The translations under genes were made by a program, and so were the position numbers. A stretch of DNA of 17,361 bases, taken from the UHGV virus genome UHGV-2175977; one strand, written 5' to 3'. The notes beneath the pieces are model-generated. The model made no database searches, was not told the origin of the DNA, and worked only from the letters and a program-made list of their open reading frames with translations. Within the stretch, counting starts at the first letter, position 1. Every line of letters starts with the position of its first letter. Positions 16,281 through 16,806 of this stretch are shown one piece after another. Origin of the DNA: a virus.

Positions 16281-16296
16281 TTTCATGAGACATGCC
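16281..16296. repeat. Left copy of 15-16 bp direct repeat TTTCATGAGACATGC
   Basis: Matches 16791-16806 at 14 of 15 positions; 11-nt identical core ATGAGACATGC. Confidence 0.6.
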
Positions 16297-16367
16297 CCGT
16301 GGGGAGCAGGGCATAACTGTGCGGAATAGCTTTCATTGTGATATCAATAATCACGGTATTCAAAATA

Positions 16368-16745
16368 TTACGGGCCTGTGGGATCAGGTTGTTTTTTGTC
16401 TGATTCCAGAGGGAAGGGACGCTGTTTCGGTTCTCTGAACTTTAGTGATAATGAATTGAAAATCCTCATTTTTTGCTGCCATGCATAATGTCTGTCCCAT
16501 GAACAGGGGGGGCTCAATTCTTCATTCACCCATGCGTTAATATCTTGTTTCAGGTGTTGAAGCATATGGGGTGTTAATGCACTCATAATAATATCCAGCG
16601 TTTTATGCGAGAGTTTACCGTAAGGGTCTGCAAGGATGCTGCTCGTTGCTTCGTTATTATCCACCATAAGTGGAAGTAGCGCTGATTTAACTTTTTCTGT
16701 CATTAGTTGCAAAAATCTACTGCGCAAATTTTCTTTACTGTTCAT
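16368..16745 (-). CDS. Hypothetical protein, opposite strand, between holin and endolysin
   Basis: 125-aa ORF with GAGG RBS 8 nt upstream; no TM segment; only long ORF in the 650-bp holin-endolysin gap. Confidence 0.4.
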   Translation of the reverse strand: MNSKENLRSRFLQLMTEKVKSALLPLMVDNNEATSSILADPYGKLSHKTLDIIMSALTPHMLQHLKQDINAWVNEELSPPCSWDRHYAWQQKMRIFNSLSLKFREPKQRPFPLESDKKQPDPTGP

Positions 16746-16790
16746 TTCTGAAGCCTCATCTGTTGTCGTTTGGTTTTCCTGAACGGGTAT

Positions 16791-16806
16791 GTTTATGAGA
16801 CATGCT
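16791..16806. repeat. Right copy of direct repeat GTTTATGAGACATGC
   Basis: See left copy at 16281-16296. Confidence 0.6.

Follow-up and report, generated by a model that had tools for sequence, protein, structure and literature searches.

A reverse-strand gene between holin and endolysin of an Escherichia coli lambdoid prophage, probably a moron-like cassette in a mosaic lysis region

Morons, in the sense of Juhala and Hendrix, are well known in the late regions of lambdoid phages. Lambda bor, which is oriented opposite to the late genes and lies next to Rz, encodes a lipoprotein for which lysogenic expression has been demonstrated. In lambdoid mosaics the joints typically fall at gene boundaries, and transcriptional interference between convergent promoters is known. 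Within the lysis region itself, the S-R interval is filled by ydfR/DUF1327 in mEp460, PhiR40_1 and Stx1a phages. The closest relative of the gene described here is found in the prophages of enterohemorrhagic E. coli (EHEC), namely WP_000138558.1 of the family phrog_1853 (ECO26_RS05970, Stx2 phage 86 gp06). We analyzed a DNA stretch of 17,361 nucleotides, UHGV virus genome UHGV-2175977 (the window), in which a gene of this family lies backward between holin and endolysin. An earlier note on this DNA had read the locus as a repeat-flanked insertion. Our analyses rather point to a moron-like accessory cassette that came into its present layout by mosaic recombination.

Lysis region of the window

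The window corresponds to the late region of a lambdoid E. coli prophage, in which the antiterminator Q gene is followed by a 237-aa ORF, tRNAs, the holin gene, a gap of 657 bp and the endolysin gene. From the tRNAs onward it has these features:

15370 to 15523: tRNA-Ile(CAU) and tRNA-Arg, 5' of the holin gene
15939 to 16211, plus strand: holin gene, 90 aa, phrog_1350
16212 to 16434: orphan spacer of 223 bp, in which repeat copy 1 and the reverse ORF's tail of 21 codons are located
16368 to 16745, minus strand: reverse ORF, 125 aa, with a 104-codon core (16434 to 16745), a tail (16371 to 16433) and the stop codon (16368 to 16370)
16746 to 16828, minus strand: 5' flank of the cassette, with Shine-Dalgarno sequence, repeat copy 2 and a candidate -10 element
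16829 to 16868, plus strand: endolysin leader, common to phages without the reverse ORF; its start is the right boundary of the cassette
16869 to 17361, plus strand: endolysin gene R, cut by the window end, with an N-terminal hydrophobic SAR-like segment

An Rfam covariance-model scan found only the tRNAs 5' of the holin gene and gave no match within 16212-16868 at E values up to 1. From the holin to the window end (15900-17361) the DNA is 100% identical in 12 complete E. coli genomes and at least 98% identical in 20, which we refer to as the lineage of the window. Chickens are the source of many genomes with this stretch.

The distance of 657 bp between holin end (16211) and endolysin start (16869) agrees with the earlier note. 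Its premise that both genes usually adjoin holds only in part for this phage group, since the S-R interval is a variable slot that is often filled in E. coli lambdoid phages and the order S-YdfR-R is common.

The holin (RefSeq WP_029400649.1, named 'phage holin family protein') matches phrog_1350 with an E value of 3e-29 and Pfam holin families only below threshold. It differs in type from the class II pinholin that is the usual companion of the reverse ORF. Two phages, Salmonella phage UPF_BP1 and Escherichia phage PhiR46_1, have holins with 77% amino acid identity to it; their holin stop overlaps a lysozyme ATG, and this lysozyme belongs to another sequence family. Further relatives, with 75% identity at the nucleotide level, reside on E. 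coli plasmids of roughly 36-75 kb, mostly 46-50 kb, and the latter are probably phage-plasmids. The DNA similarity to all these holin relatives ends at the holin stop, 16211.

The spacer that follows (16212-16434) occurs only in the 20 complete E. coli genomes of the lineage, with at least 99.6% identity, and blastn gave no match to it, neither in the phage collection nor in the loci retrieved. A weak similarity of about 60% to the 3' flank of the O103-type loci, with a 16-nt gap, may extend to about position 16403. The peptide DNIPFNKI encoded in the spacer was considered as a remnant of the DNPPFK motif of phrog_1085 and rejected, as 23% of shuffles score equally and the likeness is thus at chance level. 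A possible relic of the original lysozyme start, TGACGAATA compared with TGATGAATA, spans few codons and is too short to judge.

The endolysin (RefSeq WP_059328170.1, 177 aa) matches Pfam Phage_lysozyme with an E value of 8e-24, and its gene is 91-92% identical at the nucleotide level to 'lysozyme R' of many E. coli phages. Among the phages with such an R gene are some without the reverse ORF, and the latter is hence accessory, present in some close relatives only.

The reverse-strand gene and its family

The 125-aa ORF that had been noted on the opposite strand within the gap is present at 16368-16745 on the minus strand. Its description as an antisense-oriented gene without known function was apt as well, as it belongs to phrog_1853, a family of unknown function (E value 4.3e-41; residues 1-102 on profile positions 57-158 of 159). 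Two protein databases yielded reciprocal homologues. The protein shares 79% identity with WP_000138558.1 of EHEC prophages, once the latter is lengthened to include its upstream start. It is the ATG at 16745, with a Shine-Dalgarno sequence GAGG (16754-16757) 8 nt before it, that is conserved as the start, and not the internal Met that PGAP used for the 90-aa WP_000138558.1. Intact ORFs of 104-106 codons with 46-79% amino acid identity occur in five lineages, i.e., the window, O103 RM8385, Stx2 phage 86 (gp06), strain MFDS1006657 and strain RM8082, in which the ORF is unannotated. Across these five, pairwise dN/dS values range from 0.16 to 0.31 and third codon positions dominate the substitutions; for the 104-codon core and the widespread allele, which share 79% identity, dN/dS is 0.20. 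In IMG/VR, 47 of 48 loci contain an intact 104-aa ORF. Judging from these sequence comparisons, the reverse ORF is a genuine protein-coding gene under purifying selection.

At its 3' end, the window copy departs from the family. The family stop codon, TAG in the relatives, reads GAA here, and 21 extra lineage-specific codons follow, with BLAST-detectable homology stopping within a few nt of the replaced stop codon. The exact 125-aa form makes up a cluster (P0001) of 38 member sequences. Within the lineage, the core is intact in the window and in three of the four other loci (L001, L014 and L015) and frameshifted in L013. One site is prone to such changes:

16500 to 16506: G7 run (C7 on the coding strand, where it encodes SPP), frameshift hot spot of the reverse ORF

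In strain Ch1 a 1-nt deletion at this run frameshifts the ORF, and cluster P0004 represents the same variant. Gene annotation is inconsistent between pseudogene, the 90-aa start and no annotation at all. In several genomes of the lineage PGAP labels the gene a pseudogene ('missing C-terminus' or 'frameshifted'), and other annotation runs call a normal hypothetical protein.

The window ORF could hence be viewed as a decaying relic, a non-functional remnant that stayed open by chance after its stop codon and its partner gene, phrog_1085 on the late strand, were lost. The pseudogene labels, the frameshift variants at homopolymer runs, the 21 unrelated codons in place of the family stop and the absence of phrog_1085 would all fit such a decay, and the labels and frameshifts also count against the moron-like reading. 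Yet the core is intact in most loci of the lineage, its dN/dS against the widespread allele is low, the exact 125-aa form is found many times over, Shine-Dalgarno sequence and start codon are preserved, and normal calls exist in other annotation runs. We therefore regard decay as distinctly improbable.

An AlphaFold model of the protein (pLDDT 86.6) shows five helices in a soluble helical bundle. In agreement with this, no transmembrane segment, signal peptide or SAR segment was detected, and the maximal Kyte-Doolittle mean over 19 residues lies between 0.4 and 1.2 across the family. The reverse ORF had no match in Pfam, NCBIfam, PADLOC, PDB or BFVD apart from a sub-threshold hit to Pfam DUF6880 (E value 0.15), and three family members gave no match to the PADLOC-DB defence profiles at E values up to 1. 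The DUF1327 profile (PF07041) did not match it either, whereas true ydfR genes of the S-R interval reached E values of 1e-39 to 1e-46. The profile search that the earlier note had suggested returned phrog_1853 only and detected no relative with known function. When 1.84 billion representatives were searched with a profile, only 19 proteins of 41-143 residues were obtained, the intact ones with about 104-107 residues. All source names within the family are 'hypothetical protein', and neither full-text literature searches nor papers on Stx-phage lysis regions gave a description of the ORF.

Homologous DNA is present in 674 of 5426 complete E. coli genomes (about 12%), mostly with 81% identity over 16435-16838. 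An O103-type allele accounts for 622 genomes at 99% identity or more, including O26:H11 11368 (ECO26_RS05970), and among the carriers are the main EHEC serotypes O157, O26, O103, O111 and O145. A homologue is encoded in only 4 of 50,697 phage records. The reverse ORF between ydfR and R in Chlobot was tried as a further homologue and discarded; its sequence is unrelated, and it may be spurious.

Homology boundaries and short repeats

From its surroundings the gene is set apart as a cassette at about 16435-16828 with a GC content of 39.6%, compared with 47.6% for the holin gene, 52.1% for R and 48.1% for the window, and relative to phages without the ORF it is an extra low-GC segment. In megablast, ORF-less phages with a 91-92% identical R match only rightwards from 16829, 16836, 16850 or 16859. 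Comparison of the O103 type with an S-YdfR-R Stx1a phage gave the same boundary: a cassette of 610 bp stands in place of the ydfR body, with its end 38 nt short of R. On this side the arrangement is constant, as the ORF starts 117-143 nt divergent from the R start in 47 of the 47 IMG/VR loci that include R. The left neighbours are of several types:

O103/O157/O26 type: class II pinholin, followed by a ydfR remnant (its first 36 nt) and a further stretch of about 216 nt
Stx2 phage 86: 268-aa DUF1327-phrog_1085 fusion
MFDS1006657: 222-aa phrog_1085 gene
another type: class II holin with an unannotated gap
the window: unrelated holin and the orphan stretch of 223 bp

The earlier note had explained the window arrangement by an element of about 500 bp that had entered the junction of once adjacent holin and endolysin genes, with some 15 bp of this junction duplicated on entry. 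The repeats on which this was built, together with a second pair in the same region, are:

16280 to 16295, plus strand: repeat copy 1, GTTTCATGAGACATGC, spanning the junction between two adjacent hairpins
16791 to 16805: repeat copy 2, GTTTATGAGACATGC, inside the cassette and 23 nt from its edge
15836 to 15853, plus strand: 18-nt near repeat ACTGGATAAAATACCTGA, before the holin gene
16810 to 16827: its partner ACTGGATTATATACCTGA, before the endolysin gene, 16 of 18 positions identical to ACTGGATAAAATACCTGA

Near-identical direct repeats of 15 bp had been reported around the ORF. They exist, at coordinates shifted by one, but are weaker than described. The exact core ATGAGACATGC comprises 11 nt, and inclusion of the GTTT prefix gives 14-15 nt with a 1-nt indel, or 13 of 14 positions when ungapped. 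Exact direct repeats of an 11-mer arose in 126 of 2000 dinucleotide shuffles of the 657-nt gap (6.3%) and in 481 of 2000 shuffles of the 1.56-kb region (24%). An 11-mer shared by the left and the right ORF flank was rarer, with 21 of 5000 shuffles (0.4%) in a test that was framed post hoc; this flank-versus-flank repeat, unusual when taken alone, speaks for the insertion and counts against our preferred reading. In the same 1.5 kb, the repeat finder listed nine families of direct repeats that are comparable in size. For the 18-nt near repeat, 7 of 300 shuffles of the 1.56-kb region yielded such a pair; its endolysin-side copy is conserved in relatives and its holin-side copy occurs in this lineage only.

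The complete 11-mer is confined to the window lineage as well. The relatives have no copy 1 and keep of copy 2 only TTTATGAGA, as a single copy 55 nt 5' of the ORF start; this applies to 49 IMG/VR loci and several annotated genomes, including all loci of the O103/O157 type. Flanking direct repeats at analogous positions were not found in the relatives. Even in the lineage itself the repeat is not constant, as strain Ch1 carries the substitution A16290G within copy 1. Furthermore, the homology boundaries lie at 16211/16212, 16435 and 16829, and neither repeat copy falls on one of them. Copy 1 is 69 nt away from the nearest boundary, and copy 2 lies 23 nt inside the right one.

An insertion would also be in agreement with the distinct GC content of the cassette and with the holin relatives that directly abut their lysozyme. 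This lysozyme, however, comes from a different sequence family, and these loci hence do not represent an empty site. The repeat motif is absent where their holin stop overlaps the lysozyme ATG, and an empty site that bears the repeat once was not found elsewhere. The segment contains no transposase and no recombinase or integrase, its only conserved ORF being the 104-aa helical protein without a Pfam match, and no terminal inverted repeats bracket it. In related prophages (the 49 IMG/VR loci and five other lineages) the ORF is found at the corresponding position and no such repeats flank it, an outcome that the earlier note had itself named as refuting its reading. The repeat of 11-15 nt is a coincidence and not an insertion scar. 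We consider an insertion that duplicated the original junction extremely improbable.

The layout of the window probably stems from mosaic recombination rather than from a target-duplicating insertion, as far as sequence boundaries can tell. A holin of P22-like or phage-plasmid type would have been joined, via 223 bp of unrelated DNA, to a pre-existing module of reverse ORF and endolysin. The family stop codon may have been lost in this joining and the 21 codons added. In E. coli prophages, the low-GC cassette with its predicted soluble five-helix protein of about 104 aa moves together with the 5' side of the SAR-endolysin gene. The main result of our analysis is hence a negative one: the repeat-flanked insertion mechanism is not real, and the locus is best read as ordinary lambdoid mosaicism.

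Expression, possible role and comparison with known systems

The gene runs opposite to the Q-dependent late transcripts, and no other gene precedes it on its strand. Since it is under purifying selection nevertheless, it needs a promoter of its own, which by logical inference must lie in the 123-nt divergent spacer or just beyond. A perfect candidate -10 element, TATAAT, is found at 16820-16815 on the minus strand; it is kept in four of six lineages and comes without a good -35 element. A consensus sigma-70 scan found no minus-strand promoter for the ORF in the window and three relatives. In the distant homologue at L064, a near-consensus TTGATT-16-TATAAG, read by eye, is present upstream. At the other end of the gene, the minus strand could fold as follows:

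16288 to 16318 and 16263 to 16287, minus strand: two adjacent stem-loops, 50 nt past the ORF stop, then UUCCCGGAUUUUGUU

The folding energy of this minus-strand RNA is -25.4 kcal/mol (z -2.1), and that of a 146-nt stretch is -38.1 kcal/mol (z -2.6). The U-tract after the stem-loops is poor, and a scan for the intrinsic-terminator consensus found none for the minus-strand ORF in the window or its relatives. It is possible that the stem-loops at 16263-16318 form a weak transcript end for the reverse gene. The missing consensus promoter and terminator on the minus strand have to be counted against the moron-like reading.

What the gene does may be approached via its neighbours. It lies 117-214 nt divergent from a lysis gene in every lineage examined. 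Distant homologues (P0020, P0023 and P0030) are placed divergently 5' of a holin gene and not of the endolysin gene; the adjoining holin is of class II in L064 and L065 and of lambda type in L067, and in L066 an HNH gene lies in between. On its other side, the gene is convergent with a late-strand phrog_1085 gene in five divergent lineages, where the 3' ends are 9-19 nt apart or overlap by 18-33 nt. The phrog_1085 product has a conserved C-terminal domain, GRCMG...AAEIE...DNPPFK...PG.YLKGR, without a Pfam match. Of this partner, the O103 type retains a weak remnant and the window nothing; it was lost in at least 640 genomes in which the reverse ORF is intact.

This neighbourhood could mean that the gene is a lysis-linked module, either as a regulator or antagonist of the convergent phrog_1085 or by antisense damping of leaky lysis-gene read-through in the lysogen. 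The window would then hold the orphan survivor of a two-gene unit. The constant divergent position upstream of a lysis gene and the convergent partner are arguments for such a role, and by the same token they count against a moron-like cassette. However, the adjoining lysis gene varies between SAR endolysin, pinholin and lambda-type holin, with the HNH gene in between in L066, which speaks against specific protein-protein pairing with one of the lysis proteins. The product of the reverse gene also has no transmembrane segment or signal peptide, unlike known antiholins and membrane-tethered lysis regulators, and a 91% identical endolysin functions in phages without the ORF. Moreover, the interval from Q to the lysis genes generally attracts accessory genes, nanS-p, ydfR and tRNAs among them, and proximity may be incidental. 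The loss of the partner from so many genomes that keep the ORF intact points in the same direction. Taken together, we hold a lysis-linked role for unlikely.

In a more specific form, phrog_1853 and phrog_1085 would constitute an as yet unrecognised convergent unit with overlapping 3' ends on the lysis cassettes of enterobacterial lambdoid prophages. Its antisense member, made in the lysogen, would counteract the late partner or leaky lysis, and the window together with more than 600 EHEC genomes would have kept only the antisense orphan. If true, the unit would be a safety or exclusion device, although we rate this as quite improbable.

With moderate confidence we thus favor a moron-like accessory cassette whose window layout arose by mosaic recombination and whose expression would be biased toward lysogeny. 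We infer that the reverse gene, like lambda bor, is expressed mainly in lysogeny or early infection, while the late operon is silent. Its benefit would then be to the lysogen or the prophage rather than to lysis. This benefit is argued only from gene orientation and analogy, since neither sequence nor fold gave an informative homologue. Nevertheless, a prophage function expressed during lysogeny can reasonably be suspected of a gene that purifying selection has kept intact beside a decayed late-strand neighbour. About every eighth complete E. coli genome contains this small conserved backward gene by the endolysin. In kind, a moron in a lambdoid late region is unsurprising; its near-constant attachment to lysis genes offers a simple experimental handle and, together with its prevalence in EHEC and its purifying selection, makes the gene a reasonable target.

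Among described genes, WP_000138558.1 of phrog_1853 comes closest, with the same 104-aa core in antisense orientation about 120 nt divergent from the endolysin gene. The window copy differs from it by the C-terminal extension of 21 aa and on its left side, where a different holin and orphan DNA stand in place of the class II pinholin and the ydfR/phrog_1085 remnant of EHEC prophages. We hence regard it as an allelic variant, placed beside a new holin, of a moron-type gene in a catalogued family. ydfR/DUF1327 (Qin prophage type, mEp460_055, PhiR40_1, Stx1a phages) occupies the same S-R slot; it is on the late strand and unrelated in sequence, whereas the reverse ORF is on the opposite strand. 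In Stx2 phage 86, both meet, as the DUF1327-phrog_1085 fusion directly adjoins the reverse ORF. With insertion sequences and transposons that duplicate their target site, the locus shares a short direct repeat around DNA of different GC content; unlike these elements, it has no transposase, no terminal inverted repeats and no empty site, and its repeats are off the boundaries and not conserved. Like morons, the gene is present in some but not all close relatives, lies between conserved late genes, is low in GC and is oriented against late transcription. Lambda bor is a lipoprotein gene with a lysogen phenotype, and its promoter and lysogenic expression have been demonstrated. In contrast, the protein of the reverse ORF is predicted to be cytoplasmic and is unrelated to Bor in sequence.

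Distant homologues and a late-strand partner

Distant homologues of the reverse ORF, the 125-aa minus-strand gene between the holin and endolysin genes of the window, were located in three of the comparison loci, each divergent from and upstream of a holin gene:

L064, 3001-3318
L065, 487-810
L067, 1010-1327

The divergent neighbour is a holin gene of class II or lambda type and not the endolysin gene, so the reverse ORF is associated with the lysis cassette in general rather than with the holin-to-endolysin interval.

At its 3' end, the reverse ORF is convergent with, and often overlapped by, a phrog_1085 gene in five divergent lineages. 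These genes lie on the late strand of the comparison loci as follows:

L064, 3338-3895
L066, 1710-2264
L006, 2792-3598
L007, 1855-2523
L065, 793-963

The family gave no Pfam match and features a conserved C-terminal domain (GRCMG...AAEIE...DNPPFK...PG.YLKGR); Stx2 phage 86 carries it as a fusion with DUF1327 (YdfR). Both the window and the common EHEC type have lost phrog_1085 or show it decayed.

Frameshifts and annotation of the reverse ORF

Within the reverse ORF, a G7 homopolymer at 16500-16506 is a frameshift site. Strain Ch1, of the window lineage, has a 1-nt deletion in this run, the same frameshift is found in protein cluster P0004, and an A6 run beyond the G7 run leads to variant P0002. 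These homopolymer frameshifts could be genuine phase-like variation or sequencing error. Annotation is inconsistent, as for the following copies:

window, 16434-16745, minus strand
L002, 3997-4311
L008, approximately 2530-2850

PGAP lists the window-lineage gene as a pseudogene in some genomes and as a hypothetical protein in others, and for the EHEC copy it takes an internal Met as the start codon, giving 90 aa, despite a conserved 104-aa start with SD sequence. In strain RM8082, an intact copy carries no PGAP annotation. In O26:H11 11368 (locus 1188052-1200382), the common EHEC allele resides in a non-Stx lambdoid prophage, with nanS-p (SASA esterase) ahead of the holin gene and a PerC-family regulator downstream of Rz.

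Sequence elements ahead of the lysis genes

An 18-nt near repeat (16 of 18 positions identical) precedes both lysis genes:

15836-15853, ACTGGATAAAATACCTGA, 85 nt upstream of the holin ATG
16810-16827, ACTGGATTATATACCTGA, 41 nt upstream of the endolysin ATG

With a chance rate of 7 in 300 shuffles, it is rarer than the 11-nt direct repeat around the reverse ORF. The endolysin-proximal copy is kept in relatives and includes a candidate minus-strand TATAAT; the holin-proximal copy is confined to the window lineage.

An imperfect 26-nt dyad, CTGGATTATATACCTGATATATCCAG, at 16811-16836 spans the boundary between the low-GC cassette and the endolysin leader, 33 nt upstream of the endolysin ATG. Its outer arms, TGGAT...ATCCA, are retained in several relatives. 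The dyad may fold as a hairpin within late mRNA, or it may be bound by a protein.

Further upstream, a 237-aa hydrophobic ORF (14534-15247; WP_029400660.1 in RefSeq, hypothetical) separates the Q gene from the tRNAs; in its place, related EHEC prophages encode a protein of equal length with an HTH domain. Immediately 3' of tRNA-Arg, a third tRNA-like sequence (15526-15598) scored 19.8 bits, below the Rfam tRNA threshold of 29. At the matching position, related prophages carry a second tRNA-Arg, of which the window sequence is probably a decayed copy.
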